DNA from: Bacteroidales bacterium
Lineage (GTDB): Bacteria; Bacteroidota; Bacteroidia; Bacteroidales; WCHB1-69
Direction: 5' to 3'
Assembly: GCA_016290295.1 (NCBI GenBank)
Contig: JAEETJ010000009.1
Span: 27,794-91,793, forward strand
DNA: 64,000 bases
Positions 5,545 to 59,794 of this stretch are shown in pieces. How positions within the stretch are numbered: the stretch's first letter is position 1; the number at the start of each line of letters is the position of its first letter. A model generated the notes under the pieces. That model was not told the origin of the DNA and ran no database searches. It saw nothing but the letters and a program-made list of their open reading frames with translations. The translations under genes were made by a program, and so were the position numbers.

Positions 5545-5578
5545 GTTGCAGGTTGCAGAAGTCAGATAGCTAAGTCAA
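5544..5578. repeat. 7-bp array (GGTTGCA x2 plus 3 degenerate units) filling the whole gap between two convergent stop codons
   Basis: GGTTGCA GGTTGCA GAAGTCA GATAGCT AAGTCAA. Confidence 0.5.
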
Positions 5579-10000: not shown

Positions 10001-10020
10001 TTTAATGTGCCAATGATAAA

Positions 10021-10052
10021 AGTTGAAAGTTGAAAGTTGAAAACTGAAAGTT
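10021..10052. repeat. 7-bp array AGTTGAA x3 plus AACTGAA plus a partial unit
   Basis: Read directly from the sequence. Confidence 0.85.
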
Positions 10053-10065
10053 ATATTTTAAAATT

Positions 10066-10104
10066 CCTGACCCCTGACCCCTGACCCCTGATTCCTGATC
10101 ACTG
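10066..10104. repeat. 7-bp array CCTGACC x3, CCTGATT, CCTGATC; overlaps the rsmE stop
   Basis: Read directly. The rsmE stop (10099-10101) lies in the last degenerate units. Confidence 0.85.
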
Positions 10105-19066: not shown

Positions 19067-19648
19067 ATGACTACTGCCGACACTTTTTTTGATGTTAAAC
19101 CTACGGAATTCTCGCTGACTGCTGGCCGAATCCTGATATCGGTACCGTTTTACAACGATCCGTTCTTCAATAGAACGGTGGTGCTGCTGACGGATTATGA
19201 CGAAAAGTCATGTGCGGGGCTGGTGCTCAACAAGTCGTCAAAATTGTCGGTGCGAAAGGTGATTAGTGAAATTAAGGTGGATGACAAATTGCACATTGGC
19301 GGACCCGTGATGCCTGATGGTATCTTCTGTATTCATAATTTTGAAAATTCCAAGGCGGCCTCTAAGCTGCTGCCTGGCATATATGTCGGCTCGGATGAGG
19401 TGCTGATATCGCTGATAGAGCACAAGGCTATTCCAACCATGAAATACCGCTTCTTTGTAGGATATTCTGGCTGGTCTCCAGGACAGTTGGAGGGAGAACT
19501 GAACAAGAATATGTGGGTGATTGGTGCTGCTACCCCCGAGTTGGTCTTCGACACGCCGATTTCTAAAATCTGGGAGACTGCAGTGCGTAATCTTGGCGAT
19601 GACTACCTCCACTGGCTGAAACTCCCCAAAGTCATTGCTAGTAATTAG
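19067..19648 (+). CDS. YqgE/AlgH family (UPF0301) protein
   Basis: GRILISVPFYNDPFFNRTVVLLTDYDEKSCAGLVLNK...GGPV...FVGYSGWSPGQLEGEL. Confidence 0.8.
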   Translation: MTTADTFFDVKPTEFSLTAGRILISVPFYNDPFFNRTVVLLTDYDEKSCAGLVLNKSSKLSVRKVISEIKVDDKLHIGGPVMPDGIFCIHNFENSKAASKLLPGIYVGSDEVLISLIEHKAIPTMKYRFFVGYSGWSPGQLEGELNKNMWVIGAATPELVFDTPISKIWETAVRNLGDDYLHWLKLPKVIASN

Positions 19649-19706
19649 GTGGTAGGTGGTAGGTGGTAGGTAGTAGGTAGTAGGTAGTAGGTAGTAGGTA
19701 GTAGGG
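19646..19706. repeat. 7-bp array TAGGTGG x3 plus TAGGTAG x5 plus a degenerate unit; the first TAG is the stop codon of the YqgE-like gene
   Basis: Read directly. Confidence 0.9.
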
Positions 19707-19747
19707 ATTTTTGTAGGTCTGTCATATCATGGCAGCCGGAGAGGATA

Positions 19748-19803
19748 TAGGTTACAGGTAGTAGGTAGTAGGTAGTAGGTAGTAGGGGATAGGAATTAGG
19801 GAA
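19748..19803. repeat. Second TAGGTAG-type 7-bp array (8 units, degenerate at the ends)
   Basis: TAGGTTA CAGGTAG TAGGTAG x3 TAGGGGA TAGGAAT TAGGGAA. Confidence 0.8.
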
Positions 19804-19811
19804 TTGTGTTT

Positions 19812-19846
19812 AGTTTTCAGTTTTCAGTTTTCCGTTTTCCGTTTTC
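19812..19846. repeat. 7-bp array AGTTTTC x3 plus CGTTTTC x2; encodes the C-terminal ENGKRKTEN and the stop of the radical SAM gene on the minus strand
   Basis: Read directly. Confidence 0.85.
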
Positions 19847-20734
19847 AATTTTTTTCCGTATTTTCTGCAAAATGATGTCGTATCGTTGTAGCTTCCAGGG
19901 GCTGGTACTCAGGTATTTGGGTGGTACTTCGGAGGCAAAGCGCTCTATCACAATGTCTTTGCGCAAACGCTTGACTGTCTCCACCATGAGGTCGATATAT
20001 TCGTCCATGCTGAAGCGGTAGAAATCTTCGGGATGCTCCTGAAACTCTTGCTCCATAGCCGTTCCTTTGATGATTTGCAGCTGGTGGAATTTGATGCTGT
20101 TGAGGGGCATTTGGTTGATGAGTGGAATGCCGTTCAGCCAGTCTTCTGGGGTTTCTCCAGGCAAACCGATGATAAAATGTGCACCGGTGTGAATGCCTCG
20201 TGAAGCGGTTTGTGCTACGGCCCGTTGTGCGGTGGCGAAGTCATGGCCGCGGTTGATGCGTCGCAGAGTACGGTCATAGCAGCTTTCAATGCCGTATTCA
20301 ATGCTGATGAAGGCTTGTTGTTTTAGACTGGCAATATAGTTCAGTTTTTCCTCGTCAACGCAGTCGGGGCGGGTGCCAATGATGAGCCCTTTTATTTTTG
20401 GGTGTGACAGGGCTGTCTCATATAATTTCTGTAGTTGTGCTAAAGGTGCATGGGTGTTTGAAAACGCTTGGAAATAAGCTAAATATCCTTGGCTTTCACG
20501 GCCTCGCTGCCGATGGAATTCAATGCCGTCGTTAATCTGTTGGAGGATATCTTTTTCGGATGAACAGTAGCGTGGCACGAAGGCGTTGTTGAGACAGTAG
20601 GTGCAGCCGCCAATACATACAGTACCGTCACGGTTGGGACAGCTGAATCCCGCGTCAATTGGCAGTTTCAGCACAGGTTCGCCGAAACGGTCAATGAGGA
20701 ATTGTTTGTAAGTATAGTAGTGGTCTGACATCAT
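19817..20734 (-). CDS. TIGR01212-family radical SAM protein
   Basis: DAGFSCPNRDGTVCIGGCTYC. I prefer the start MMSDHYYTYKQF (ATG at 20734), which lies 33 nt downstream of a -7 box. The last 9 codons and the stop lie in a 7-bp repeat array. Confidence 0.8.
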   Translation of the reverse strand: MMSDHYYTYKQFLIDRFGEPVLKLPIDAGFSCPNRDGTVCIGGCTYCLNNAFVPRYCSSEKDILQQINDGIEFHRQRGRESQGYLAYFQAFSNTHAPLAQLQKLYETALSHPKIKGLIIGTRPDCVDEEKLNYIASLKQQAFISIEYGIESCYDRTLRRINRGHDFATAQRAVAQTASRGIHTGAHFIIGLPGETPEDWLNGIPLINQMPLNSIKFHQLQIIKGTAMEQEFQEHPEDFYRFSMDEYIDLMVETVKRLRKDIVIERFASEVPPKYLSTSPWKLQRYDIILQKIRKKIENGKRKTEN

Positions 20735-25200: not shown

Positions 25201-26444
25201 TCGAAAATGCCATCTTCACCATTCAGATATACTGGAATGAAGAAAACCTTGACTTTCTGATCTGGTGCGTTATGCAAATTGTTGGCTATCAAATTTTTGA
25301 CAACGGGGTCGTTGTAGCTGTCGTAGAGTGGGTGAGTGGTGAAATCATCCATGACGGGCTTGTCGCCGATGGGCTGGTTGAGTTTCGTCATCAGGTCGGT
25401 GCGCTTGCCGCTGGTGCCGGCGGGTACGGCGATGAAAGCCACCACCTCACGTTGCAGTTGCTTGTCCTCATTCAATTTGGCCAAGCCCTTGATGAACATG
25501 TCGATACCCTTGTTGTGAAACTCGTAGCGGCCGCTGTTGATGACCAGCAGGGCGTCGTCGCTGATGGTTTGCTGACACAGGGTAGAGGCCACTTTTAGCA
25601 GTTTCTGGCGGGCAGCGGAGCGCAAACGTTGGTACTCCTCATCTTGCGGCACGAAGTTGTTCTCGAAACCGTTGATGGTGACGGTATCCACGGGCTTGCC
25701 CAAGAATGCCTTGCATTCGATATTGGTGATGTCGCTCACTGTCGTGAAAGCGTCAGCGGTTTGGGCGGACAGGTATTCCAGTGAGAACTTGGACTGCACG
25801 CCAAAGCGGTTAGCGGACTCTTGCGGTTGGTATTGCTCGATATTGCCATAGAGGGGTAGTCCGTTGCCGGCGATGCAGCGACCCAAAACGGTGGCGTGGG
25901 TGGTGAACACGGTGGCCACTTGCGGGGCTTTCTGGCGCAGGTACAGGATGCCGGTGCCGGTCATCCATTCGTGGAACTGGGCCACGATTTTGTCCATGGA
26001 GGTGCAGTAGAACTGATAGAAGCTTTCGACGACTCTTCCGGCAGCATAGCCGAAGAGGGCGGGCTCGATATAGTCCCATTGTCCAGAGATGGAGTCCAGT
26101 TTATAGGTAAGCCATAATTGTGTCAGAATATCATTTTTCTTTTCAAAATAGGGCGTAAAATCCACTAATATGACTACGGGGTGACCGCTGACATTCCACC
26201 GGCCCACACGTATGCGGAGACCTTCCGCCTGGGCACTTTCGCGCCAGTTTTTGAATAAGCCGGGGTCCTCGATGAACTCCTGTCTTTTGTCATCCTCGCG
26301 CGACAGGTCGGGGCCGATGCAGATATAGTTGTTTTGGAATTGATTAACGGCTGTGAATGCTTTGGTGGAGAGAACGGTGTAAATACCACCGACTTTATTA
26401 CAAATCTCCCAGCTGGTTTCAAATAGATAGTCAGGTTTGCTCAT
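22218..26444 (-). CDS. Fused glycogen synthase (GT3-like) / alpha-glucan phosphorylase (GT35-like), about 1408 aa
   Basis: The N-terminal half reads SKPDYLFETSWEICNKVGGIYTVLSTKA..., a eukaryote-type glycogen synthase. The C-terminal half reads VAYFSMEFG...FSGGLGMLAGDYLKEASD...ARRFATYKRAHL...EASGTSGEKAIMNG, an alpha-glucan phosphorylase. It is one uninterrupted frame. I prefer the start at ATG 26444, 29 nt downstream of a -7 box. Confidence 0.8.
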   Translation of the reverse strand: MSKPDYLFETSWEICNKVGGIYTVLSTKAFTAVNQFQNNYICIGPDLSREDDKRQEFIEDPGLFKNWRESAQAEGLRIRVGRWNVSGHPVVILVDFTPYFEKKNDILTQLWLTYKLDSISGQWDYIEPALFGYAAGRVVESFYQFYCTSMDKIVAQFHEWMTGTGILYLRQKAPQVATVFTTHATVLGRCIAGNGLPLYGNIEQYQPQESANRFGVQSKFSLEYLSAQTADAFTTVSDITNIECKAFLGKPVDTVTINGFENNFVPQDEEYQRLRSAARQKLLKVASTLCQQTISDDALLVINSGRYEFHNKGIDMFIKGLAKLNEDKQLQREVVAFIAVPAGTSGKRTDLMTKLNQPIGDKPVMDDFTTHPLYDSYNDPVVKNLIANNLHNAPDQKVKVFFIPVYLNGEDGIFDMTYYEMLPGIDLSVFPSYYEPWGYTPLESVAFGIPTITTTNAGFGQWAAANFPGQKAVTVIHRTDNNDEQVTDGIAKAILYHTACNNEETEQNRAKATEIAQQALWENLYNNYLDCYNIALSKSFDRSDLYRNKTSKVGLLVEKFQKPEPVWHHISVKSKLPEQLKKLEKLSQNLWWSWNYEARELFEEAAGKERWQQYEENPVYLLQELPYSCIEKLMNDSDYLAKLDFVYADFERYMNEPRTRQEEQVAYFSMEFGISNELKIFSGGLGMLAGDYLKEASDCNVNMVGIGLLYRYGYFTQQISSIGDQINLYPPQSFSKLPIQPYKDEDGKWITISLALPGRMLYARIWRVDVGRVPLFLLDTDFNDNTEEDRRTTNSLYGGDVENRLKQEILLGIGGMRVLEKLNIRPTIFHLNEGHAAFLNLERLRTFMQEEQIPFGTAIELVRCSSLFTTHTPVPAGHDSFSEDLMRRYFSYYAEKCNIDWPAFMCLGRKNIDDIYSKFSMSILACKLSQEVNGVSAIHGRVSREMFSFLYEGHLPEELHIGHVTNGVHYPTWAHKKWQLFHKQLFNNQFIKDQSNDQIWKKIYEVDDAEIWKIKDDLREELIDNIKVSLETQMRRRNESPDLIMNTLKAIRKDALTIGFARRFATYKRAHLLFTNEERLRRLLNNPEQPVQFVFAGKAHPHDKAGQDLIKRILEFSRKPDFIGKIIILENYDIILAKKLISGCDVWLNTPTRPLEASGTSGEKAIMNGVLNFSVLDGWWAEGYKEGAGWAINEQITYTDNGLQDQLDATTIYSMIEDQIAPCFYRRDEKNIPYDWVKMMKNCFYKISPHFTMKRQLDDYYEKYYHKLEKQHKLLTDNNLENTFNLVRWKEKVITGWDGIEVIEATQSEPREASFTLGDKIVTTVRLRMGSLHAEDLKVELVCSKLENDKRVFYQKVPFECTDNQHGIATFTCTIEPKDAGMMDYSIRIIPANPMLPHDMDFNLVKWL

Positions 26445-26472
26445 TATATATAGTATAGGTAAATTAAAACGG

Positions 26473-26480
26473 CAAAAATA
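26473..26480 (-). promoter_or_regulatory. Bacteroidota -7 box
   Basis: Reverse complement TATTTTTG, 29 nt upstream of ATG 26444. Confidence 0.45.
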
Positions 26481-26568
26481 CAAAATTTTTTAATGTGCTA
26501 ATGAGACAATTTAATTAGCACATTGGTTAAACAGTGAATTAGTAAATGGTTTTGATGTGCCAATTAAA

Positions 26569-26603
26569 AATTGTCAATTATCAATTGTTAATTGTTAACT
26601 GCA
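26569..26603. repeat. 7-bp array AATTGTC, AATTATC, AATTGTT x2, AACTGCA; overlaps the yggS stop and last codons
   Basis: Read directly. Confidence 0.8.
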
Positions 26604-27265
26604 TAGTTTCTCGCCCCAAAAATCGCACTGCCCACGCGGATCAGCGTGCTGCCTTCCTCAATGGCGATGGGGTAGTCCTCGCTCATGCCCATCGACAATT
26701 CCTTGAAGTCGGGATTGTTGCTGAAATATTTGGTTTTCAGTAGATTGAAGTATTCGTGCAGGGTGTGGAACTCGCGGTGGATTTGCTCTTGGTTATCGGT
26801 CAAGCTGGCCATGCCCATCACGCCACAAATTTTGATGTTTTGCAAATCGGCGAAGCCGGGGTCGTTGAGCATGGCCTCGCATTCGTCCAGCAGAAAGCCG
26901 AACTTGGTCTCTTCCTGTGCGATGTGGAATTGCAGGAGGCAGTTCAGTACCCGTTCATGCTTGATGGCGTGTTTGTTCACTTCCTTCAGCAGCTCGTAGC
27001 TGTCAATGCTGTGAATCAGGCTGACAAAAGGTGCGATATATTTGATTTTGTTGGTTTGCAGGTGACCGATGAGATGCCATTCAATATCTTTGGGCAGGTG
27101 CTCGTATTTGCCTTTCAGCTCTTGTGCCTTGTTCTCCCCGAAAATCCGTTGTCCCTCGTTGTACAGGGTCATGATGTCCTCTTCGGGCTTGGTCTTGGAG
27201 ACCGCCACCAGTCGCACGCCTTCCGGCAGGTTATCTTTGATGTTGTGATATGCTTGTAAGTTCAT
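26588..27265 (-). CDS. yggS: YggS-family pyridoxal-phosphate homeostasis protein
   Basis: RLVAVSKTKP, IGHLQTNK, GLMGMA-type motif (VMGMAS) and ELSMGMSEDY. Confidence 0.88.
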   Translation of the reverse strand: MNLQAYHNIKDNLPEGVRLVAVSKTKPEEDIMTLYNEGQRIFGENKAQELKGKYEHLPKDIEWHLIGHLQTNKIKYIAPFVSLIHSIDSYELLKEVNKHAIKHERVLNCLLQFHIAQEETKFGFLLDECEAMLNDPGFADLQNIKICGVMGMASLTDNQEQIHREFHTLHEYFNLLKTKYFSNNPDFKELSMGMSEDYPIAIEEGSTLIRVGSAIFGARNYAVNN

Positions 27266-27268
27266 TTT

Positions 27269-27298
27269 AGGTTACAGGTTACAGGTTACAGGGGTCAG
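27269..27298. repeat. 7-bp array AGGTTAC x3 plus AGGGGTC, filling the yggS / four-helix-bundle gene gap
   Basis: Read directly. It is inverted relative to the array at 27702..27757. Confidence 0.85.
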
Positions 27299-27302
27299 AT
27301 TA

Positions 27303-27677
27303 TTAATTTGACGTGTTAGAGTTTAATTTTTTTGTTATTGTCATTATTATTTTTCCAATTTCAGATAAAAGATTCATTATAGGCTGTATTTCTGCCTCAG
27401 ACAAATAGTTGATGTTGACGCATAGTATCAATTGTGTCTCCAATTCACATACAGAACCATTGGCAATATATAAGAATTGAAGATATTCTTTCTTTGAATT
27501 TCTACCAAAACCTTCGGCAATGTTAGAGGGAATGGATATTGCGGCTCTTCGCATCTGGTCACTCAGGGTGTAGGTTTCCTCTTTTGGTAATTTTTTGATT
27601 ATTTTGTATAGAAATGTGGTCATCTTCATTGCCTTTTGCCAAACAATCAAATCCTTGTATGTATTAACTTTTATCAT
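27303..27677 (-). CDS. Four-helix-bundle protein (23S rRNA intervening-sequence protein / Avd-like family)
   Basis: LIVWQKAMKM...LPKEETYTLSDQMRRAAISIPSNIAEGFGR.SKKEYLQFLYIANGSVCELETQL. Confidence 0.88.
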   Translation of the reverse strand: MIKVNTYKDLIVWQKAMKMTTFLYKIIKKLPKEETYTLSDQMRRAAISIPSNIAEGFGRNSKKEYLQFLYIANGSVCELETQLILCVNINYLSEAEIQPIMNLLSEIGKIIMTITKKLNSNTSN

Positions 27678-27701
27678 TAAGTATAAATCTTAAATTACTA
27701 A

Positions 27702-27757
27702 TTTCTGAAACCTGTTCCCTGAAACCTATTTTCTGTCACCTGTCACCTGTAACCTGA
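27702..27757. repeat. 7-bp array of NNNCTGW units (…TTTCTGT CACCTGT CACCTGT AACCTGA); inverted partner of 27269..27298
   Basis: The reverse complement GGTCAGGTTACAGGTGACAGGTGACAG matches the left array at 19 of 22 positions in the best register. It encodes RLQVTGDRK and the stop of the metallophosphoesterase. Confidence 0.8.
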
Positions 27758-28562
27758 CCACTCCAATCCTCTGTCCCTTCTTCCCCGTCTGCAAGATATA
27801 GGTTCCATTGACGATTTTAGGCTCTTTCAGTACGGTGTGTGTATGGCCGCCCACGATAACATCAATACCTTTCACCTGACTGGCCAACATCATGTCATCG
27901 GGATTATCCTCGGTTCCGCAATCTAAACCTAAATGGGACAGGCAGATAACATAGTCGCATTTTTCCGTTTCACGGAGTTCTTTCACCATGCAGTCGGCCA
28001 CGTCAATGGCGTTGAGATATTTGATGTCTTTGTAATTTTGGGGCGAAGTCAGTGCTTTGATGTCGGTGAGCAAACCAAAAATGCCAATTCGTTTGCCATC
28101 CATTTCAATGATGACATATTTTTTGACAATATTCTTCAGCTTTTTATTGAAAAACAAATAGTTGGCGCAGACAATGGGAAATTTGGCCTTGGCCAACTGC
28201 TTGGCTAACATTTTGCTACCATTGTCAAATTCGTGATTGCCTAATGCGGCTGCTTGATAGCCCAGCAGATTCATGAATTTGATTTCAGTGGCACCTTTGA
28301 AGAAGTTGAAATAGGGTGTGCCCTGAAAATAATCTCCCGCATCCAACAGAAGCACATTCTTGTTTTCTTGTCGCACCTGGTCGATGATGGCGGCACGACC
28401 ATAAATGCCCCCTACCATAGAGCCGTCTTTGTCTTGCAGGGGCTCGATTTGACTGTGGGTATCATTGGTATGCAAAATCACAAGAGGCGTTTGTGCCGAC
28501 ACCTGGAATGCCACAAGTGCCCATATCAAGCATAGCGTGAAAAGTGCGAGTGTCTTTTTCAT
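27726..28562 (-). CDS. Metallophosphoesterase, 5'-nucleotidase N-terminal-type
   Basis: Signal peptide. ILHTNDTHS, LLLDAGDYFQGTPYFN, LGNHEFDNG and GGHTH motifs. Confidence 0.8.
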   Translation of the reverse strand: MKKTLALFTLCLIWALVAFQVSAQTPLVILHTNDTHSQIEPLQDKDGSMVGGIYGRAAIIDQVRQENKNVLLLDAGDYFQGTPYFNFFKGATEIKFMNLLGYQAAALGNHEFDNGSKMLAKQLAKAKFPIVCANYLFFNKKLKNIVKKYVIIEMDGKRIGIFGLLTDIKALTSPQNYKDIKYLNAIDVADCMVKELRETEKCDYVICLSHLGLDCGTEDNPDDMMLASQVKGIDVIVGGHTHTVLKEPKIVNGTYILQTGKKGQRIGVVRLQVTGDRK

Positions 28563-28564
28563 GA

Positions 28565-29335
28565 TTATCTGGGTTGAGGAATAATGCTCATTCGATTGTC
28601 GTTTTTGCCGGTGACATTTTTGCCTTCAGCGGTCATCTTCTTGATGTGGTTGATGTAGGCGTCGCGTAGCACAATACCTGTATTTTCGACATGGCTGATT
28701 TCAATGTCTTTGAGTATGTCGTCACCACCAGTCACAATGAAATCCAGGGTGATCATACGGTAAATTTTGTTATTGTCGATTTCTTGGCCGTTAATGAGTG
28801 CCTTGTAGAAATAGTCGCCGGCATATTGTATGCTCACTTGCTGTGAATAAGGCTCGCATTTTTTTACTTTGAAGCGTTGGAAGATCTTCCTGACTTCGCT
28901 GCCTTTGATGTCGGCGATGACCAGGTTGTTCTCGAAGGGGGCAATCTCAAAGATGTTGCCAATAGTGATGTTTCCTGCCTGGAGCGAAGAGCGGATGCCG
29001 CCGAAGTTCAACAGTGAGAAATCCACGGCTTCTTTGTGTTTTTTCTGGCAGTACTCGTTACCAATTTCCACGAGAATGTCGGTCAGGAAGTTGGAAAGCG
29101 GGCTCTGGGGCCTCTCGCTTACCATGGTTTCGGGACAGTAGCCGATGACCACATTGGTTTTCTTTTCCAATTTTTTCTTTGATTTTTTCAATTCTTTCTG
29201 CAACTGGGGATTTTTGTATGTGCTGCAGTTGCCGTTGACGTTTTTCAGTTCATAGCCAACGACCTTGCTTTGCGCCGGGCAGAGCAAGGTCGTCATGCTG
29301 ATGATCAGTATGAATGATAATATTTTACGCATCAT
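28565..29335 (-). CDS. 5'-nucleotidase C-terminal-domain protein
   Basis: Signal peptide. SPLSNFLTDIL...LLNFGGIRSSL...GNIFEIAPFEN. The gene starts 3 nt before the partner metallophosphoesterase gene. Confidence 0.7.
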   Translation of the reverse strand: MMRKILSFILIISMTTLLCPAQSKVVGYELKNVNGNCSTYKNPQLQKELKKSKKKLEKKTNVVIGYCPETMVSERPQSPLSNFLTDILVEIGNEYCQKKHKEAVDFSLLNFGGIRSSLQAGNITIGNIFEIAPFENNLVIADIKGSEVRKIFQRFKVKKCEPYSQQVSIQYAGDYFYKALINGQEIDNNKIYRMITLDFIVTGGDDILKDIEISHVENTGIVLRDAYINHIKKMTAEGKNVTGKNDNRMSIIPQPR

Positions 29336-32120: not shown

Positions 32121-32176
32121 AATAGTTAACTTTTAGAAGTTAATAGTTAATAGTTAATAGTTAATAGTTAATAGTT
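32121..32176. repeat. 7-bp array AATAGTT (1 unit, 2 degenerate units, then 5 perfect units)
   Basis: Read directly. It lies upstream of tyrS. Confidence 0.9.
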
Positions 32177-32239
32177 GCGGAGTGAATATTACTTTCAGTT
32201 TTCCGTTTTCTATACTGACCCCTGATCACTATATGAAAA

Positions 32240-32288
32240 ACTATCAACTATTAATTATTAATTGTCAATTGTCAATTGTCAATTGTCT
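32240..32288. repeat. 7-bp array ACTATCA ACTATTA ATTATTA ATTGTCA x3 ATTGTCT; its left part is the inverted complement of the AATAGTT array
   Basis: Read directly. It overlaps the stop and last 8 codons of the 32265..32684 gene. Confidence 0.85.
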
Positions 32289-50599: not shown

Positions 50600-53500
50600 A
50601 TGCTGATGAGACGTGGTGTCATATTGCTGATATTCAGTTTGTTTCTGCTTCCAATTGCGTTGCAGGGACAAAGTTGCAATATGCAAAATGGCAGTACTGT
50701 AACGCTTCCGCTTTCATGTCCTCAAAGTGTGTTTTTTTATGATCCTCCCGATCCTCCTGGTGATTGTGATTTTCAGTTAACGGAGAATGATTCTTTGATA
50801 ACTCATGTTAGTTATAATGCTCCTTTGTGTGAAGGTGATACCATGGTATTAACTTGCACGAATCCAATTGATGGGGTTACATACCATTGGTGGGGACCAG
50901 AAAATTGGTCTGCTACTACCACGGTGCCAATTGTGATGATTCCCAATGTAAGCATGGCTAATGCAGGCCAATATTTCTTATCGTTGATGGGAGCAGGTAT
51001 TACTGTTGATACGGCACATGTCAATGTTTTTGTTGCTGCACTTCCTGTAGTTACGCTGACTTCCAATCATGACACCATTTGTAGTCAAACTTCGGTGATA
51101 CTTACTGCCAACGTGGCGAATAACACTTTTGTCAGATATTTATGGTTGTCAGGTAATGTAAGTGATACAACAAATTCAGAAGAAAATCCTTTAGAGGTAA
51201 GTCCACAAACTACCACGACTTATCGTGTGATTGCTACTAATGAATGGGAATGTACGAGTTCCACAAGCAAAACAATTACTGTACGTCCTTTGTCTGATGT
51301 ATCTATATTAGGAGATTCCCTAATGTGTCTTGGAGATAGCATATTGTTAACAGCTTTGTTTGACAACTTTGATTGCAGTTGTCATTGGAATACAGGTGAC
51401 ACTTCACATGTAATATGGGTGTATCCGACAGAAGATGCTGATTATGAAGTAAGTGTGACTAATAATTATGGGTGTACATCCTCAGATACGAAACATGTCG
51501 ATGTTCTTTATGGTACTCATAATGTGTTGACAGAAAGGGCCTGTGAGGTTTATATATGGCATGACCAGACCTATGACACAACAGGTGTTTATACATACGC
51601 TTATACCAATGATGAAGGCTGTGCCAGTGTAGATACGTTGTATTTGTCTGTAAATCAAAATTTTCAGATTGATGAGAATCCTGTTATGGAGGACTCATGT
51701 ATAAATGGTCAGCTTGCTTTGGAAGCTTGCAATGGCAATCAAGTAACTCTGTCTGCACCGGAGGGATATGACAGTTACCGGTGGAACAATGGCAGTGCCT
51801 CGGCAACGGCTACCTATACGGTGAATGGTACAACCACGGCAAGTTGTCTGGTTTCCACTACGGATTGCGAACTAACCCTTATGGCCACGCTATTGACACA
51901 GAGCGGACAACCTGCAGTCAATAGTGTGATTTATGATACCATCTGCGAGGGTGAATGCTACACTGACAATTTTTATAATCTGCCACCACAGAATGAGATA
52001 GGGACACATGTGTTCAGTAATACTTTCTACAATGTCAATACTTGTTCTGGAGGCTGCCTCACTACAACCTTATATCTTACGGTGCAACAACATTTATACC
52101 ATATTTATGATACAGCTTGCGTAGGACAGAATTACAATATCTTTGGACTGCAATTGTCGGACTTGACAGTAGGGGAGCGTTTGATAAGTCGGGATTTTCA
52201 TAGAAATAATGGTTGCGACTCCAGTGTTACGCTACATTTGAAAGTAGAACCTCCATTCACTATCTCCAATACCATTACAGGTGATACTGCTGTGTGCCGT
52301 AATGGTTATGATACTTATATCTTGCCGAATGCTAATAATTTTGCCTCTTTTCACTGGAATGTGCCGGAAGGCGTAAATGTTATTGGTGGTCAGGAGACTC
52401 CTGTTGTGAGCCTGTCCTTTACGGATGAGGCATTCACTCCTGCCCATATTACAGTGATAGGTACCCACCTTTGTGGCATAGATAGTGTTTCGTTGAGTGT
52501 GACGCATTTTCCAGTATATGACATTGTTATTCAGGATAGTATCTGTATTGGTGACGAATACCACCGCTATGGTTTTGACTTGGCACAGCAGGATAGTGCA
52601 GGCTTGTTCACCTATACGAATAGCGGTACTACCATACATGGTTGCGATAGTGTTGTGACTCTGCAATTGAAGGTGAATCCGACATACGCAGTGAATGATT
52701 CCCTGACTATCTGTGCCAGTGAATTGCCATACACATGGAATGGGGTTTTGTTTACGGAAGCAGGCATACAAACGACCACTTTGCAGACGGTGAATGGCTG
52801 TGACAGCATGGTGACGATGACCTTGATCGTGAACCCGATCTACGCGGTGCCCGATTCTATGACGATTTGTGCCAGCGAACTGCCATACACCTGGAATGAG
52901 GTTGAATTCACGGCTGCAGGCACTCAAAATGTTACTTTGCAGACGATAAATGGCTGCGACAGTGTGGTGACAAAGGTCTTGACCGTGAACCCGATTTACG
53001 CGGTGCCCGATTCCATGATGATTTGTGCCAGCGAACTGCCATACACCTGGAATGATGTTGTGTTCACGGCTGCCGGCTCTCAAAATGTTACTTATCAGAC
53101 GGTGAATGGCTGTGACAGTGTGGTGACGATGGTCTTGACTGTGAACCCGACCTATGCGGTGCCCGATTCCATGATTGTTTGTGACACTGAACTTCCATAC
53201 ACCTGGAATGGGGTTGAATTCACGGCTGCTGGCACTCAAACGGCCACTTTGCAGACGATAAATGGCTGTGACAGCGTGGTAACAATGGTCTTGACAGTGA
53301 ACCCGACCTACGCGGTGCCTGATTCCATGACGATATGTGCCAGTGAATTGCCATACACATGGAATGAGGTTGAGTTTACTGAAGCTGGCATTCAAACGGC
53401 CACTTTGCAGACCGTGAATGGCTGTGACTCTGTAGTGGCAATGGTTTTGACCGTAAACCCAACCTATGCTGTATCCGATTCCATGACGATTTGTGACAGC

Positions 53501-56500
53501 GAACTGCCATACATCTGGAATGAGATTGAATTCATTGATGCTGGCACTCAAAATGTTACTCTGCAGACGATAAATGGCTGTGACAGTGTGGTGACGATGG
53601 TCTTGACCGTGAACCCAACCTATGCGGTACCTGATTCCATGATTATTTGTGACACTGAACTGCCATACACTTGGAATGAAGTTGAATTCACGGAAGCTGG
53701 TACACAAAATGTTACTTTGCAGACTGTAAATGGCTGTGACTCTGTGGTGACAATGGTCTTGACTGTGAACCCGACCTATGCGGTGCCCGATTCCATGACG
53801 ATTTGTGATAGTGAACTGCCATACACATGGAATGGGGTTGAATTCACTGCTGAAGGCACACAAACAGCCACTTTGCAGACAGTAAATGGCTGCGATAGCG
53901 TGGTAACGATGTTCTTGACCGTAAACCCGACCTATGTGGTGCCCGATTCCATGACAATATGTGCCAGCGAACTACCATACACTTGGAATGGGGTTGAATT
54001 CACGACTGCAGGCACACAAACAGCCACTTTGCAGACAGTAAATGGCTGTGACTCTGTGGTGACAATGGTTTTGACCGTTAACCCGACCTATGCAGTGCCC
54101 GATTCCATGACGATTTGTGACAGTGAACTGCCATATACCTGGAATGAGATTGAATTCACTGAAGCTGGCACGCAAACTGTTACACTGCAGACCGTGAATG
54201 GCTGTGACTCTGTGGTAACAATGGTCTTGACTGTGAACCCGACCTACGCGGTGCCTGATTCCATGACAATATGTGCCAGTGAACTGCCATACACCTGGAA
54301 TGGGGTTGAATTCACGGAAGCTGGCACTCAAACGGCCACTTTGCAGACAGTAAATGGCTGTGACTCTGTGGTGACAATGGTTTTAACCGTGAACCCGACC
54401 TACGCGGTGCCTGATTCCATGACGATATGTGCCAGTGAATTGCCATACACATGGAATGAGGTTGAGTTTACTGAAGCAGGCATACAAACAGCCACTTTGC
54501 AGACAGTAAATGGCTGTGACTCTGTGGTGACAATGGTATTGACCGTGAACCCGACCTATGCAGTGCCCGATTCTATAATCATTTGTGACATTGAATTACC
54601 ATATGTTTGGAATGAGGTTGAGTTTACTGAGGCTGGCACGCAAACTGTTACACTGCAGACCGTGAATGGCTGTGACTCTGTGGTAACAATGGTCTTGACT
54701 GTGAACCCGACCTACGCGGTATCCGATACTATGACTATTTGTGCCAACGGATTGCCATACATGTGGAATAACGTTGAATTTACTGAAGCTGGCACGCAAA
54801 CTGTTACACTACAGACCGTGAATGGTTGCGATAGCATTGTGACAATGACTTTGGTGGTGACGACAACATACATTGTCTCTGATGAACGAGATATTTGTGA
54901 CAACGAGTTGCCCTACCTATGGAATGAGGTTGAATTTACGGCGGCAGGTACACAAAATGTTACTTTGCAGGCGGTGAATGGCTGTGACAGTGTGGTAATA
55001 ATGTTTTTGACGGTGAATCCAATATACACAGTGCCAGATTCCATGACGATTTGTGACAGTGAATTGCCTTATATTTGGAACGAGGTTGAATTCACTGAAG
55101 CTGGCTCTCAAACGGTCACATTGCAGACGCTGAATGGCTGTGACTCTGTGGTGACAATGTTCTTGACTGTAAACCCGACCTACGCGGTGCCTGATTCCAT
55201 GACGATTTGTGACAGTGAACTGCCATACATCTGGAATGAGATTGAATTCATTGAAGCAGGTATACAAACAGCCACTTTGCAGACCGTGAATGGCTGTGAC
55301 TCTGTGGTGACAATGGTCTTGACCGTGAACCCGACTTACGCGGTACCCGATTCCATGACGATTTGTGCCAGTGAACTGCCATACACCTGGAATGAGATTG
55401 AATTCACTGAAGCTGGCACTCAAACGGCCACTTTGCAGACAGTAAATGGCTGTGACTCTGTGGTGACGATGGTTTTGACAGTGAACCTAACTTATGCGGT
55501 GCATGATTCCACGACGATATGTGCCAGTGAATTGCCATACACATGGAATGAGGTTGAGTTTACTGAAGAATGCACACAAACAGCCACTTTGCAGACCGTG
55601 AATGGCTGTGACTCTGTGGTGGCAATGGTTTTGACCGTGAACCCAACCTATGCTGTATCCGATTCCATGACGATATGTGACAGTGAACTGCCATACATCT
55701 GGAATGAGATTGAATTCATTGAAGCAGGTATACAGACAGCTACTTTGCAGACCGTGAATGGCTGTGACAGTGTGGTGACGATGGTCTTGACCGTGAACCA
55801 AACGGTGACTAATTTTGATGAACAAATCGTTTGCGACAGCCTCACTTGGTTGGATGGCATAACATATTACGCCAGCACAAATATTCCAACTTATACCTAT
55901 GTCGGTGGTGCTGCAAACGGCTGTGACTCCATCGTGACCTTGCATCTTATTGTAAATCAATCTTATATTATTGAGGATACGCTCACAATTTGTGAAAATG
56001 AACTGCCTTATACTTACGGTGATACTGTTTTTGGAATAGAAACCACTTCAATGTCAGTTCATTATATTCATAATTCAACGGCTTTGGCATGTGATAGTAT
56101 TACTTTATTGACGATAGAGCTTGTTCCTTCTTCTTATAACACATTGGATACCATTGTTTTGGAAAACGATCTTCCGCTGTGGATGAATGGTGTGGCCTAT
56201 TCAACGGATACCACATTTGCTCTGACTTTTGCAGGAGCGAATGATGCTGGCTGCGACAGTGTCGTAACAGTCCATATAAATGTTCTTTATAACGATATGG
56301 TCTATGTGGATACTACCATTTGTGACAATGATTTCCCATTTACATGGAATGGAGTGGTTTTCACTACAGCGTGTACGCAAAGTGTCGTATATACCGCCAC
56401 AAATGGTGTGGATAGTGTTGTGACGATGACGGTGAATTATAATCCGACCACATACGGCTTCATGGATACCACAGTCTTGCAGAATGACCTGCCCTTTGTG

Positions 56501-59500
56501 TATTATGGAGAATCCTATTCGATACCGGGCATTTATACGCAAACTATTGAGAATGCTGCTGGTTGTGACAGTGTTGTGACCATCAATTTGGAGGAAATAT
56601 ACAATGTGGTAGCATTCGCTGACACTGTGGTGTGTGCTATTAATACGCCTTTCGAATGGAATGGTTACATCTTTACGCAAACCGCTACGCAGATGGTGAT
56701 ATTGCCTGCATCTACGGGTGCTGACAGTATGTTAGTGATGACGGTGACGGTGGTTTATACCACGTATGGTAGCATGGATACTACTGTGGTGGAGAATGAC
56801 TTGCCGTTTGTTTGGAATGGAGAGTCCTATACGACACCGGGTTATAAAATCCAGATGTTGTCTAATTATGCGGGCTGTGACAGTATCCTCACCATAAATC
56901 TGCATGTACTTTATAATGTTACATTGCCTGCTGATAGTACGGTGTGCGAGAGCGCATTGCCCGTGATATGGAACGGACAATCATTTGATGCTGAAGATAT
57001 TCAAGCTGCAACACATACTATCATCCATTCGGCTCTGTTGACTGCTTCAACAGGTGTGGACAGTACGGTGGTGATGACAGTAGTGGTTAATCCCACAACA
57101 TACGGTGTTGTTGATACTACAATCATCGAAAATGACTTGCCATTAGTGCTGAATGGAGAATCCTATCCTGTTGCGGGAACTCATACTCAAACTTTCAGTA
57201 ATTCAAATGTTTACGAATGTGATAGTGTGCTTACTATTCATCTCACTGTGTTGAATAATGTGACGGTTTATAGGGATTCGATTCTATGCCAAACTGAATT
57301 GCCATTGACTTGGAATGGAATCACTTTCGAATTAAATACTACTGAACCATTTGCTACACCAGTTATGCTCTTGGATTCGGCTGTTTTAACGGCTTCAACG
57401 GGTGTGGACAGTACGGTGGTAATGACGGTAGTGGTGAATCCAACGACATACGGTACTTTGGATACCACCATTTTGGAAAATGATTTGCCACTGTTGTTAA
57501 ATGGCCAGTCTTATATGACAGACAGCATTTTTAGCCAAACACTGGCTGGTGTCAATAGCAATGGCTGCGACAGCATGCTGACCGTCCACCTAACCGTTCG
57601 TTATAACGTAACAACATTTTTATATGACACTATTTGTGAGAGCCAGTTGCCTTTCACTTGGAATGGTATGACATTTGTGGCGGACTCTATAGCTGAAGGA
57701 AGCCATAGTTTCACGCAGTCAGCCATATTGACGGCCTCGACGGGAGTGGATAGTACCGTGGTGATGACGGTGCATGTCCTTTATGCCACAACAGGTATAG
57801 ATGAACAGGTTGCATGTGACAGCTATACCTGGATAGATGGACAAACCTATACGTCTAGTACAGAAACAGCAACTTACGTTTTGACCAATGAAGTTGGTTG
57901 TGACAGTGTGGTTACCCTGCATTTGACCGTGTATCACAGTGTGACAAGTCAAGATACTTTGGTATTGGTGGAAAACCAGTTGCCATATTATTTTGCTGCT
58001 GCGGATACTACCATAACTTTAGGAGCAGCTGTCGAGTCTCAGTTTAGTTACCATTTGTCCACCATCCATGGATGTGACTCATTGGTAGAACAGACGGTCA
58101 TAGTCCATTATAATACGAGTGCAACGCTTGACACGATGGTTTGTGCGGCATCATTGCCATACACTTGGCATGGCCATGTGTTTACTGAAGCTGGAGTATA
58201 TACAGACACACTGCTCAATAACAATGGAAGCAGCCATTATCTGACCTTGCATTTGACCGTGAGCAATCCAACGGTTACGATGCAAAACATTACACACATC
58301 AATTGTTATGGTGCCTCTACGGGTAGTGTAGGGGTGCTGGTAAGTGGCGGAGTGTCACCTTATACTCCTATTCATTGGGAGAACGAAGCAGGGACTACGG
58401 TTTCGACTACGGCCCAGCTGAATAACCAGCCGGCTGGAAAATATCGTCTGTTCGTGACGGATGCTTTAGGCTGTCAGGTGACGGATAGTGTTATACTGAC
58501 ACATCTGAACGACAGTATGGTGCCAGGTGTCATCGCTGCCAATCAGGGTGTGTGTGAAGGAACTCATTTGCAGACCTTTACAGGAACTGCCGCATCGGGT
58601 GGGGCAGGTAGCGTTTACCAGTGGCAGATTTCCACTAACGGTACCACATGGAATCCCGCTCCAGCACCAAATAACAGTCAAAACTACAATTATGCTCAGG
58701 CGGTTAACTCTCCCTTCTCGCTCCGCAGGGCATGGATTAGCGCGGCCTGTGGTACTGTATATAGCAATGTGGTCAATGTCATTGTCTATCATAATGTAGC
58801 GGACACTATCTACGATGTAGTTTGTCAGGGTTATCCGTATCAAGACAATGCTTTTGACATCTCCGCTACCGCCACGTCAACACCAGGTGTGTTGCCATGT
58901 TCCATTCATCTGCAAAGCGCCCACGGCTGCGACAGTATGGTGACACTGCTCCTGAGCATTACCCCTTCGTCATACGCAGAGGAGAGCTTGACAATATGCC
59001 AGAGCGAATTGCCATACACGTATAACGACACCACTTTCATGCCAGGTACGCCTCATCTTTCAACTTTCATCTTTCATCTTTCAACTTCAGAAGGTTGTGA
59101 TAGCATCCATACCCTGCATTTAACGGTAAATCCAGTGTATGAACTGAACTTTGAGGATGTGGTTTGCGAAGGCGATGCGTATGACAACCACGGCTTTGTG
59201 GTGCCATCAACCCAGACTGTCGGCGTGCCGGAACTGAACTTGACCCAGCAATTGCAAAGCCAGCTGGATTGCGACAGCATCGTGAACTTACATCTGACTG
59301 TGGTGGATACTTCTATCGCCATAGTATCGTTGACATCTGATTTCTGTGAAGAATATTCTGCAGAACTGTCTGTTGAGACCAACATGACAAACTATCTATG
59401 GAGTACAGGCGAGACTTCCCCGACCATTACCGTGACACAGCCCGGCACCTATACCGTGACCGCCACTCAGGATCATTGTTCAGTTTCTACATGGTATCAG

Positions 59501-59794
59501 ATAGAAACCTGTGAACTTAACGTATACTTGCCGAATGCCATCACACCCAATGACGATGGTATTAACGATTACTTCTGTCTCCACGAAAGATACTTGCCTA
59601 TGATCGCTGACTTCGAAATACGTATCTATACTCGTTGGGGCGAGTTGATATACTATTCCGATGACAAAAATTTCAAGTGGAATGGTGAGTATCGTGGCCG
59701 CATTAATCGCAATATTATATACACTTATCTGATTAATTTCACCGATAACCGAGGCATCCCGTATCAGCTCACAGGAACCATTACCGTGCTGTAA
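50600..59794 (+). CDS. Giant (3064 aa) T9SS-secreted repeat protein with a type-B C-terminal domain
   Basis: Signal peptide MLMRRGVILLIFSLFLLPIALQGQ. About 34 Cys-containing modules end in GCDS-x-V-T-x-x-L-x-V. There is one SprB-like repeat (INCYGASTGSVGVLVSGGVSPY). The C-terminus reads LPNAITPNDDGINDYF...IRIYTRWGELIYYS...WNGEYRG. Confidence 0.85.
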   Translation: MLMRRGVILLIFSLFLLPIALQGQSCNMQNGSTVTLPLSCPQSVFFYDPPDPPGDCDFQLTENDSLITHVSYNAPLCEGDTMVLTCTNPIDGVTYHWWGPENWSATTTVPIVMIPNVSMANAGQYFLSLMGAGITVDTAHVNVFVAALPVVTLTSNHDTICSQTSVILTANVANNTFVRYLWLSGNVSDTTNSEENPLEVSPQTTTTYRVIATNEWECTSSTSKTITVRPLSDVSILGDSLMCLGDSILLTALFDNFDCSCHWNTGDTSHVIWVYPTEDADYEVSVTNNYGCTSSDTKHVDVLYGTHNVLTERACEVYIWHDQTYDTTGVYTYAYTNDEGCASVDTLYLSVNQNFQIDENPVMEDSCINGQLALEACNGNQVTLSAPEGYDSYRWNNGSASATATYTVNGTTTASCLVSTTDCELTLMATLLTQSGQPAVNSVIYDTICEGECYTDNFYNLPPQNEIGTHVFSNTFYNVNTCSGGCLTTTLYLTVQQHLYHIYDTACVGQNYNIFGLQLSDLTVGERLISRDFHRNNGCDSSVTLHLKVEPPFTISNTITGDTAVCRNGYDTYILPNANNFASFHWNVPEGVNVIGGQETPVVSLSFTDEAFTPAHITVIGTHLCGIDSVSLSVTHFPVYDIVIQDSICIGDEYHRYGFDLAQQDSAGLFTYTNSGTTIHGCDSVVTLQLKVNPTYAVNDSLTICASELPYTWNGVLFTEAGIQTTTLQTVNGCDSMVTMTLIVNPIYAVPDSMTICASELPYTWNEVEFTAAGTQNVTLQTINGCDSVVTKVLTVNPIYAVPDSMMICASELPYTWNDVVFTAAGSQNVTYQTVNGCDSVVTMVLTVNPTYAVPDSMIVCDTELPYTWNGVEFTAAGTQTATLQTINGCDSVVTMVLTVNPTYAVPDSMTICASELPYTWNEVEFTEAGIQTATLQTVNGCDSVVAMVLTVNPTYAVSDSMTICDSELPYIWNEIEFIDAGTQNVTLQTINGCDSVVTMVLTVNPTYAVPDSMIICDTELPYTWNEVEFTEAGTQNVTLQTVNGCDSVVTMVLTVNPTYAVPDSMTICDSELPYTWNGVEFTAEGTQTATLQTVNGCDSVVTMFLTVNPTYVVPDSMTICASELPYTWNGVEFTTAGTQTATLQTVNGCDSVVTMVLTVNPTYAVPDSMTICDSELPYTWNEIEFTEAGTQTVTLQTVNGCDSVVTMVLTVNPTYAVPDSMTICASELPYTWNGVEFTEAGTQTATLQTVNGCDSVVTMVLTVNPTYAVPDSMTICASELPYTWNEVEFTEAGIQTATLQTVNGCDSVVTMVLTVNPTYAVPDSIIICDIELPYVWNEVEFTEAGTQTVTLQTVNGCDSVVTMVLTVNPTYAVSDTMTICANGLPYMWNNVEFTEAGTQTVTLQTVNGCDSIVTMTLVVTTTYIVSDERDICDNELPYLWNEVEFTAAGTQNVTLQAVNGCDSVVIMFLTVNPIYTVPDSMTICDSELPYIWNEVEFTEAGSQTVTLQTLNGCDSVVTMFLTVNPTYAVPDSMTICDSELPYIWNEIEFIEAGIQTATLQTVNGCDSVVTMVLTVNPTYAVPDSMTICASELPYTWNEIEFTEAGTQTATLQTVNGCDSVVTMVLTVNLTYAVHDSTTICASELPYTWNEVEFTEECTQTATLQTVNGCDSVVAMVLTVNPTYAVSDSMTICDSELPYIWNEIEFIEAGIQTATLQTVNGCDSVVTMVLTVNQTVTNFDEQIVCDSLTWLDGITYYASTNIPTYTYVGGAANGCDSIVTLHLIVNQSYIIEDTLTICENELPYTYGDTVFGIETTSMSVHYIHNSTALACDSITLLTIELVPSSYNTLDTIVLENDLPLWMNGVAYSTDTTFALTFAGANDAGCDSVVTVHINVLYNDMVYVDTTICDNDFPFTWNGVVFTTACTQSVVYTATNGVDSVVTMTVNYNPTTYGFMDTTVLQNDLPFVYYGESYSIPGIYTQTIENAAGCDSVVTINLEEIYNVVAFADTVVCAINTPFEWNGYIFTQTATQMVILPASTGADSMLVMTVTVVYTTYGSMDTTVVENDLPFVWNGESYTTPGYKIQMLSNYAGCDSILTINLHVLYNVTLPADSTVCESALPVIWNGQSFDAEDIQAATHTIIHSALLTASTGVDSTVVMTVVVNPTTYGVVDTTIIENDLPLVLNGESYPVAGTHTQTFSNSNVYECDSVLTIHLTVLNNVTVYRDSILCQTELPLTWNGITFELNTTEPFATPVMLLDSAVLTASTGVDSTVVMTVVVNPTTYGTLDTTILENDLPLLLNGQSYMTDSIFSQTLAGVNSNGCDSMLTVHLTVRYNVTTFLYDTICESQLPFTWNGMTFVADSIAEGSHSFTQSAILTASTGVDSTVVMTVHVLYATTGIDEQVACDSYTWIDGQTYTSSTETATYVLTNEVGCDSVVTLHLTVYHSVTSQDTLVLVENQLPYYFAAADTTITLGAAVESQFSYHLSTIHGCDSLVEQTVIVHYNTSATLDTMVCAASLPYTWHGHVFTEAGVYTDTLLNNNGSSHYLTLHLTVSNPTVTMQNITHINCYGASTGSVGVLVSGGVSPYTPIHWENEAGTTVSTTAQLNNQPAGKYRLFVTDALGCQVTDSVILTHLNDSMVPGVIAANQGVCEGTHLQTFTGTAASGGAGSVYQWQISTNGTTWNPAPAPNNSQNYNYAQAVNSPFSLRRAWISAACGTVYSNVVNVIVYHNVADTIYDVVCQGYPYQDNAFDISATATSTPGVLPCSIHLQSAHGCDSMVTLLLSITPSSYAEESLTICQSELPYTYNDTTFMPGTPHLSTFIFHLSTSEGCDSIHTLHLTVNPVYELNFEDVVCEGDAYDNHGFVVPSTQTVGVPELNLTQQLQSQLDCDSIVNLHLTVVDTSIAIVSLTSDFCEEYSAELSVETNMTNYLWSTGETSPTITVTQPGTYTVTATQDHCSVSTWYQIETCELNVYLPNAITPNDDGINDYFCLHERYLPMIADFEIRIYTRWGELIYYSDDKNFKWNGEYRGRINRNIIYTYLINFTDNRGIPYQLTGTITVL
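52673..55792 (+). repeat. 20 tandem in-frame copies of a 156-bp (52-aa) unit inside the giant gene
   Basis: Consensus unit: VNPTYAVPDSMTICASELPYTWNEVEFTEAGTQTATLQTVNGCDSVVTMVLT. Unit starts at 52673 and 52829 confirm the 156-bp period. The last unit ends at 55792. Confidence 0.95.

Follow-up and report, generated by a model that had tools for sequence, protein, structure and literature searches.

An intervening-sequence-like four-helix-bundle gene between inverted heptamer arrays in an apparent protein-coding operon of a Bacteroidales bacterium

The window analysed here, a stretch of 64,000 nucleotides (nt) from contig JAEETJ010000009.1 of a Bacteroidales bacterium, carries a short gene for a four-helix-bundle protein of the S23p (PF05635) family, enclosed by two arrays of degenerate heptamers in inverted orientation; gene and arrays together are referred to below as the cassette. 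The gene lies on the minus strand with nt5C and mpe upstream and yggS downstream, all co-oriented and separated by gaps of at most 50 nt, and because these intergenic gaps are so small the four genes look like one operon. FloA is also among the called neighbours, along with the 5'-nucleotidase C-terminal half, the metallophosphoesterase and YggS. The features of the locus are given below in the direction of transcription, with the arms written on the gene strand.

28565..29335, minus strand: nt5C, 5'-nucleotidase C-terminal half, upstream of mpe
27726..28562, minus strand: metallophosphoesterase (mpe) gene, 5'-nucleotidase N-terminal half, upstream in the operon
27705..27760, minus strand: 5' arm, eight heptamers (TGGTCAG GTTACAG GTGACAG GTGACAG AAAATAG GTTTCAG GGAACAG GTTTCAG)
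27726..27728, minus strand: TAG stop codon of mpe, provided by the array unit AAAATAG
27678..27704, minus strand: A/T-rich leader, from the array to the ATG of the four-helix-bundle gene
27303..27677, minus strand: four-helix-bundle (S23p) protein gene, 124 residues, PF05635 / TIGR02436
27269..27298, minus strand: 3' arm (CTGACCC CTGTAAC CTGTAAC CTGTAAC CT)
26588..27265, minus strand: yggS (PLP-binding YggS family), downstream in the operon

The initial annotation had described a 124-residue four-helix-bundle open reading frame (ORF) between yggS and a metallophosphoesterase gene, and profile searches confirm this assignment. The protein matches PF05635 (23S_rRNA_IVP) at 140.3 bits (curated cut-off 33.8, E 3e-41) and TIGR02436, 'four helix bundle protein', at 132.4 bits (curated cut-off 24). 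Its length agrees with that of the family (~120 residues), and it carries the RxxxSxxxNxxE motif (R44, S48, N52, E55) described for PF05635-type proteins (PMC3936711). The nearest solved structures by sequence are XCC0516 (2GSC, E 1.4e-19) and 2RLD, each entry containing five chains, and a Xanthomonas member of the family is described as a homopentameric toroid (PMC4990558). The ratio of nonsynonymous to synonymous substitution rates (dN/dS) is 0.02-0.10 in five homolog pairs, indicating that the protein is maintained by purifying selection. Between the window and the rumen metagenome-assembled genome RUG14804 (L001), 3 of the 375 nucleotides of the gene differ, all of them synonymously. No second PF05635 gene or paralog was found in the window by phmmer against all window ORFs, and an Rfam scan of 26000-29000 at E up to 1 returned zero family matches. 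Scanning for promoter and terminator consensus sequences gave nothing confidently assignable to the cassette, the sigma-70 consensus being unsuited to Bacteroidota.

On the plus strand, the left array consists of 3.4 copies of AGGTTAC at 27269-27292 followed by AGGGGTCAG up to 27298, as delimited by the repeat finder TRF, and the right array at 27705-27760 reads CTGAAAC CTGTTCC CTGAAAC CTATTTT CTGTCAC CTGTCAC CTGTAAC CTGACCA. The flanking inverted arrays reported initially are real and match slightly better than the 19 of 22 positions first given, since 27275-27299 and 27732-27756 are complementary over 25 nt at 88% and a second register, 27269-27291 against 27733-27755, over 23 nt at 91%. The ungapped inverted-repeat score was calculated as 36 for L001, whose arms are identical to those of the window, compared with 13 on average and 17 at most for shuffled flanks and with 30 at the 99th percentile of 200 control ORFs, the controls being taken from a simple longest-ORF caller rather than a gene finder. 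The pattern CAGGTNACAGGTNACAG (CAGGTNA type) has nine matches with two or fewer mismatches in the window, against 0.09 expected, and six of these nine are the two arms.

Folding of the minus-strand RNA over 27255-27775 supports the long-range stem that had been proposed, with the arrays paired in both the minimum-energy and the centroid predicted structures, a z-score of -3.05 and 0 of 100 shuffles as stable. The arm-arm duplex energy in the window is -41.8 kcal/mol. The paired outer core of the 5' arm covers 27732-27756 and finishes 55 nt ahead of the ATG, while degenerate inner units extend to 27 nt before it; the 3' arm begins 4 nt past the TAA stop and finishes 3 nt ahead of the yggS ATG, and the yggS start region would be sequestered by the predicted stem. 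The outer units of the 5' arm encode the last 10 codons of mpe, so that the array provides both the tail of this protein and its TAG stop. Heptamer length is not a multiple of three, and stop-bearing units consequently end any upstream frame within a few units.

The association of gene and arrays extends far beyond this locus. Scanning one genome per species yielded 486 relatives, of which the best 80 loci were kept (466 kb in total); they include several related Flavobacterium loci, and the counts are not phylogenetically independent. The loci span Bacteroidota, Spirochaetota, Firmicutes, Campylobacterota and Planctomycetota, with five more phyla (Omnitrophota, Atribacterota, Patescibacteria, Cloacimonadota and Proteobacteria). 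Period 7 dominates their tandem repeats, accounting for 201 TRF rows where the next period has 69. Of the 188 non-overlapping period-7 arrays, 107 were located no farther than 150 nt from a family member, in flanks that make up 5.4% of bases. The initial annotation had asked whether paralogs are likewise flanked by inverted heptamer arrays, and most homologs are. Of 85 family genes, 65 have 120-nt flanks whose inverted-repeat score is higher than in any of 20 shuffles, and for 61 the score passes the 95th percentile set by 200 other ORFs of these loci (Mann-Whitney p 1.6e-26). At least 18 flank-flank pairs are present in the minimum-energy fold of 67/81 cassettes, against 23/84 short control ORFs; among the high-scoring controls of this comparison, at least one (L078 4711-5070) resembles, by eye, a divergent family member with array flanks of its own. 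Arm duplex energies in five example cassettes range from -46 to -80 kcal/mol. Typically, the 5' arm ends 30 nt before the ATG and the 3' arm starts 9 nt after the stop.

Arrays adjoining family genes also share a unit. When TRF consensus units were phased without a prior, the 5' units near family genes gave, on the gene strand, T (.80), A (.85), G (.94) and T (.64), followed by S, W and W. Their information content is 5.1 bits, whereas shuffled units reach 3.5 bits at most, and the downstream arm, once reverse-complemented, yields the logo of the upstream arm. Within 150 nt of family genes, 65% of arrays contain TAG. The share falls to 27% for more distant arrays of these loci and to 12% across 80 loci selected by yggS, and it is 21% among random heptamers. 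The TAG core was considered as a general property of arrays and rejected as such, being specific to arrays that adjoin family genes. It is more specific than the need for stop codons would require, because TAA and TGA should serve equally well as stops. Polarity relative to the gene is fixed, with a C-poor 5' arm (12%) and a G-poor 3' arm (13%), and 29 of 61 5' arms have stops in all three frames when read inward, against 9 of 61 in the reverse direction. The median array length is ~4 units, with 5 not clearly preferred, and TRF detected no array downstream of 18 of the 55 genes that have one upstream. The window units (CAGGTGA, CAGGTTA) belong to a minority with C in the first position, and the nearest relatives of the window gene in other phyla also have units of the NAGG type: L003, L004 (Treponema), L005 (Eubacteriales) and L008 (Arcobacteraceae).

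Homologous cassettes are predominantly embedded in operons. Co-orientation with both neighbours was found for 61/70 (87%), against 70/112 background middle genes (Fisher p 3e-4), and the median gaps to the neighbours, 54 and 42 nt, hold little beyond the arrays themselves. None of the 20 homolog loci scanned for ribosomal RNA (rRNA) is located in rRNA; for this reason the rRNA-borne version looks like a special case and not the rule, and, for the homologs sampled, embedding in an operon is the norm. Two Planctomycetota cassettes (L030 1878-2483 and L043 2856-3458) lie between co-oriented tRNA-Met and tRNA-Glu genes, within an RNase-processed transcript, which is a context intermediate between rRNA and mRNA; one Saccharibacteria cassette lies just ahead of a tRNA-Pro gene, bringing the tRNA-adjacent loci to three in all. 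Several Flavobacterium species (L023, L036, L058, L080) carry the cassette at the same site, where the 3' arm ends 3-4 nt before the ATG of a downstream gene starting MKIGLYFGTFNPIHVGHL, which looks like nadD. Published screens have found the PF05635 family within cas operons, for example between cmr3 and cmr2 (PMC3936711), and these occurrences fit promiscuous operon insertion.

The mpe-yggS junctions of relatives, recovered via YggS, provide the comparison with related genomes that the initial annotation had called for, and both an empty site and alternative fillings were found. The empty junction (L086) has no arrays, and ~10 nt separate the mpe stop from the yggS ATG. Another junction (L084, 2262-2500) is ~235 nt consisting entirely of heptamers, with no ORF, whose units drift stepwise (cagttga, caattga, taattga ... 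aaactga, aagttga ... taatcca ... cattgcc). The L081 (1930-2500) and L082 junctions have arrays flanking an unrelated hydrophobic ORF of ~100 residues (MLIIVNIVFFIIGVVG...), together with two copies of a GC-rich 29-mer, CACTACCCCGCCCTTCGGGCACCCCTT, and this unrelated ORF means that other cargo can occupy the array-flanked site. At the L085 junction, arrays enclose an 82%-identical four-helix-bundle family member, and a 5' AGGTTTC unit stands opposite a 3' CTGAAAC unit in register. Every filled junction has its array beginning right after the conserved mpe ...GQ(R/K)IG and encoding a different tail and stop. One metagenome variant (L166) has exactly one CTGTAAC unit fewer in the 3' arm.

The closest comparison is with L001, in which YggS, mpe and nt5C are 96.9%, 88.8% and 87.9% identical in protein to those of the window and synteny is confined to ~29900 to ~26520. 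Nucleotide identity is 69-92% across nt5C and mpe, 97-100% per 100 nt across the cassette with both arms, and 89-98% across yggS. The tract of high identity is not specific to the cassette, as it continues into yggS, which suggests a recombination tract covering both. The exact 124-residue protein occurs on at least 21 contigs, with the same mpe-ORF-yggS locus in all ten places looked up. Across the survey, locus pairs with common arm 10-mers have higher protein identity (52.7% vs 47.5%, p 4e-21), and pairs between Atribacterota, Omnitrophota and Planctomycetota with ~70% protein identity have common TAGTGAA/TAGTCGT arms. Judging from these patterns, gene and arms appear to behave as one heritable, horizontally transferable unit.

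The closest known counterpart is the Coxiella burnetii intervening sequence (IVS), an element of 428 nt in helix 45 of 23S rRNA with a 28-bp terminal stem (Warrier et al. 2016, PMC4990558). Three tandem GACAGAT units and one GACAGAA precede its S23p ATG, in two or three copies by strain, RNase III makes its 5' cut at the start of the first heptamer repeat, and the S23p ORF itself is reported as decaying and probably untranslated (PMC4990558). Its authors drew no general conclusion from this build. S23p ORFs are also borne by 23S IVS of Leptospira, Brucella and Xanthomonas (as cited in PMC4990558). The window element shares with the 23S rRNA IVS the protein family, an ORF in sense within the host transcript and terminal inverted repeats enclosing only this ORF. 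The structural analogy is stronger than the initial annotation had it, with GACAGAT x2-3 plus GACAGAA in the Coxiella 5' arm facing GACAGGT GACAGGT GACAGAA in the window, and with unit copy number varying among Coxiella strains as L166 is one unit short here. Unlike the rRNA element, the host transcript of the window cassette is a protein-coding operon and not rRNA helix 25 or 45, a translated gene (mpe) ends within the 5' arm, purifying selection acts on the protein in contrast to the reportedly decaying ORF of Coxiella, and RNase III cleavage, shown in Coxiella, is presumed by extension for the window. Not being located in rRNA, the window element is no strict member of the rRNA IVS; it is IVS-like in every feature that could be checked.

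Intergenic heptamer repeats offer further parallels. TAACTGA arrays at gene ends, with three-frame stops noted, occur in Beggiatoaceae, cyanobacteria and Bacteroidetes (MacGregor 2015, PMC4679880), and Xanthomonas contains GGGAATC arrays with 70-75 convergent array pairs (Rehm et al. 2015, PMC4692102). The latter paper also covers the GGGGAYT repeats of Nostoc, cites the short tandemly repeated repetitive (STRR) sequences of Calothrix and reports over-representation of heptamer repeats in many bacteria, and its supplementary table lists, without comment, a four-unit array between bccP (XCC0517) and XCC0516 that overlaps the XCC0516 start (PMC4692102). These repeats resemble the arms in being head-to-tail period-7 arrays at gene ends, often lying over the upstream stop, with three-frame stops in one orientation, variable unit number and, in Xanthomonas, convergent inverted pairs. 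In contrast, generic arrays do not have the TAG core seen beside family genes, and neither paper draws a link to the PF05635 family (PMC4679880, PMC4692102). Full-text literature searches for a general statement of the gene-array association found only the Coxiella description and the uncommented XCC0516 row.

Sites for HutP consist of NAG plus 4 nt at period 7, flanking a stem that is remodelled by a ring-shaped protein (PMC2425495). Sites of HutP and TRAP are alike to the arms, by analogy only, in having tandem NAG triplets at fixed spacing around a stem; the protein fold is unrelated to the four-helix bundle, and RNA reading by the S23p family is purely putative. Transposases of the RAYT type are tyrosine transposases with a known DNA-hairpin substrate. 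In the REP/RAYT arrangement, too, a gene is enclosed by short repeats in inverted orientation, further copies of which are dispersed through the intergenic regions of the same genome; the window protein, unlike RAYT, is a 124-residue helical bundle without a catalytic motif, and the unit sequences differ between sites. PF05635 also resembles Avd (PMC10053308), the accessory protein of diversity-generating retroelements, with which the window protein shares the four-helix-bundle fold family.

Taken together, the data moderately favour an IVS-type promoterless cassette whose arms would form an RNase III-type stem in the operon transcript, a reading adopted because the Coxiella 23S IVS has the same build of tandem heptamers, S23p ORF and RNase III cut. 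The S23p gene, carried between its two inverted degenerate arrays, would have entered the nt5C-mpe-yggS operon in sense, right where mpe ends, and would be transcribed within the host polycistronic RNA. On this RNA, the arms are predicted to pair as an imperfect duplex of ~25-30 bp around this ORF alone; by analogy with the rRNA-borne element, the duplex would be an RNase III substrate, and cleavage would excise the ORF segment and uncouple it from mpe and yggS. Arrays change length by whole units through slippage.

Several observations weigh against this interpretation. RNase III cleavage is extrapolated from rRNA elements of other bacteria, and the 5' arm lies within the translated end of mpe, where the stem on RNA under translation would be melted by ribosomes. 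In about a quarter of the 85 homologs, arm pairing is not significant. There is no excess of G:U among arm mismatches (41 G:U vs 54 A:C), which implies that arm complementarity could be kept by a DNA-level process and not by selection on the sense RNA, and the antisense strand of the cassettes folds equally well. Heptamer arrays without a four-helix-bundle gene are common in the window and in related loci. The mobile cassette envisaged in the initial annotation holds up in part: empty and alternatively filled junctions support it, whereas there is no sign of recent transposition, the exact protein having been met solely at the mpe-yggS locus in the look-ups, no target-site duplication is visible between the empty site L086 and the filled sites, and no mobility mechanism is evident. 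Neither the target-site duplication nor the near-identical copies at other sites that characterise miniature inverted-repeat transposable elements and insertion sequences were found. Overall, the first interpretation is partly supported, in its structural and comparative parts.

The arrays might instead be binding sites for a ring-shaped protein, most economically the four-helix-bundle pentamer itself, an explanation that we regard as unlikely. Each subunit would read one unit of NAG plus four bases of single-stranded RNA (or DNA), as hexameric HutP reads (NAG N4)x3, and binding to the 5' arm would compete with the stem and set expression of the gene itself and of yggS, an arrangement compatible with the stem model as an added layer. 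Such recognition would account for the shared T-A-G-T core (5.1 bits against at most 3.5 for shuffled units), for its concentration near the gene with TAA and TGA not equally used, for the fixed polarity of C-poor 5' and G-poor 3' arms, and for the 18 of 55 genes whose upstream array has no TRF-detected partner; the five chains of 2GSC and 2RLD and the Xanthomonas toroid (PMC4990558) supply the ring, and with HutP there is already a protein that recognises NAG at period 7 and remodels a stem (PMC2425495). However, binding by any family member is purely putative, the window's own units are of the CAG and not the TAG type, bases beyond the NAG core differ greatly from locus to locus, co-inheritance accounts equally well for the way protein and arms co-vary, and the median array has ~4 units, 5 being not clearly preferred. 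A more specific proposal, that the pentamer reads the arrays with one NAG-N4 per subunit, controls the stem of its own gene and possibly promotes spread or maintenance of the arrays, arises because the TAG core matches the format of HutP sites and the solved members are pentameric rings; it is more doubtful again. At the level of DNA, replication slippage at gene ends may create arrays and drive their turnover, with the RNA stem as a by-product and the inverted arms acting as hairpin, cruciform or recombinogenic ends between which the gene is captured, exchanged or lost among array-bearing sites. This account, too, is given a low probability. The lack of G:U excess, the equal folding of both strands, the empty, array-only or differently filled states of one junction and the whole-unit copy changes in L166 and Coxiella strains all speak for it, as do the prevalence of period 7 even in loci chosen independently of the gene (~20 arrays per 100 kb) and the over-represented heptamers of many bacteria with their 70-75 convergent pairs in Xanthomonas (PMC4692102). 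A palindrome acting purely as DNA should ignore orientation, but in 87% of cassettes the gene reads in sense with its neighbours on either side. Nor is any recombinase, transposase or target duplication associated, the look-ups placed the identical protein at one locus only, and the TAG core with its fixed polarity to the gene is left unexplained.

Coincidence, in which generic intergenic filler arrays happen to flank the gene in opposite orientation, could draw on the gene-less arrays at six window sites, including the CAGGNNN array after the stop of a giant ORF (59796), and since heptamer arrays are common across the window, it had to be excluded with data from elsewhere. The cross-phylum statistics on arrays, arm complementarity and folds, in comparison with control ORFs, contradict it, as do the restriction of the TAG core to arrays near family genes, the retention of the cassette as a unit in diverged backgrounds and the Coxiella precedent, and it is considered very improbable. 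An even smaller probability attaches to the gene encoding the Avd accessory protein of a diversity-generating retroelement. The similarity is weak, with 38.2 bits to bAvd PF22296 and 50.6 bits to NF033474, whereas the curated cut-offs are 40 and 80, and at the window gene, with FloA, nt5C, mpe and YggS as its neighbours, there is neither a reverse transcriptase nor template/variable repeats. No close relatives of the four-helix-bundle protein were found on viral contigs, which argues against a phage or retroelement link.

Members of PF05635/TIGR02436 are among the commoner bacterial proteins of unknown function, known mainly as rRNA-IVS ORFs and relatives of Avd. Heptamer repeats have been reported as over-represented in bacteria since 2007, to our knowledge with no accepted role. 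The present analysis ties the two together as a promoterless operon-embedded ORF between inverted (TAG-N4)n arms in many phyla. The architecture itself is known from Coxiella, and what appears to be new, judging from the full-text searches, is the generalisation of the gene-array association beyond the Coxiella rRNA IVS. If the pentamer reads the arrays, PF05635 with TAG-type arrays would constitute a widespread self-regulating selfish module of which the rRNA IVS is a special case. The roles of the S23p protein and of the heptamer arrays become bench-testable with defined substrates, namely a 520-nt transcript and heptamer RNA. The family keeps turning up in annotation pipelines, operon predictions and screens for CRISPR association (PMC3936711, PMC10910872), and this recurrence may reflect promiscuous operon insertion rather than a functional link.

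Period-7 arrays are present at about seven further window sites with no four-helix-bundle gene nearby, among them the following.

5543-5558, intergenic array
10019-10098, intergenic array
19646-19852, intergenic array
26561-26595, intergenic array
32121-32287, intergenic array
59796-59822, intergenic array

Units at the first five of these gene-less sites include AAAGTTG, CCTGACC, TAGGTAG/TAGGTGG, AGTTTTC, AATTGTC and AGTTAAT, and several of the arrays adjoin or provide the stop codon of a neighbour, as where the yggS tail ...AVNN* runs into 26561-26595. The possibility that they are ORF-less inverted pairs was rejected, the units being by eye mostly direct or unrelated. Even in the yggS-selected loci, period 7 is the commonest tandem period. 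Many Bacteroidales (L101, L102, L103, L107, L121, L141) have an array directly after the yggS stop (~3020-3260), with wholly different units per lineage, so that the position persists while the sequence turns over fast; some of these are ORF-less inverted pairs, such as (TGAATGC)n then (CATTCAG)n, or (ATGGCCT)n then (GCCATTG)n. One Saccharibacteria locus (L049, 2040-2150 and 2620-2730) has ssb between two direct copies of a ~85-nt element, each of which is an ORF-less inverted-heptamer hairpin composed of (GATTTTG)n, a loop and (CTATAAT/CCAAAAT)n.

The array at 59796-59822 (CAGGGGA CAGGATA CAGGTAG CAGGTGG) belongs to the same unit family as the cassette arms and begins 2 nt past the stop of a 3064-residue ORF (50600..59794); neither a partner arm nor a small ORF was seen beside it. 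This ORF, which looks like a surface protein, contains a 156-nt unit repeated twenty times in tandem at 52673-55799 (82% matches), corresponding to 52-residue repeats. Within its coding region, at 59053-59087, lies a further period-7 array of five TCATCTT/TCAACTT units, which could be a slippage or phase-variation site, because gain or loss of units would put the downstream codons out of frame.

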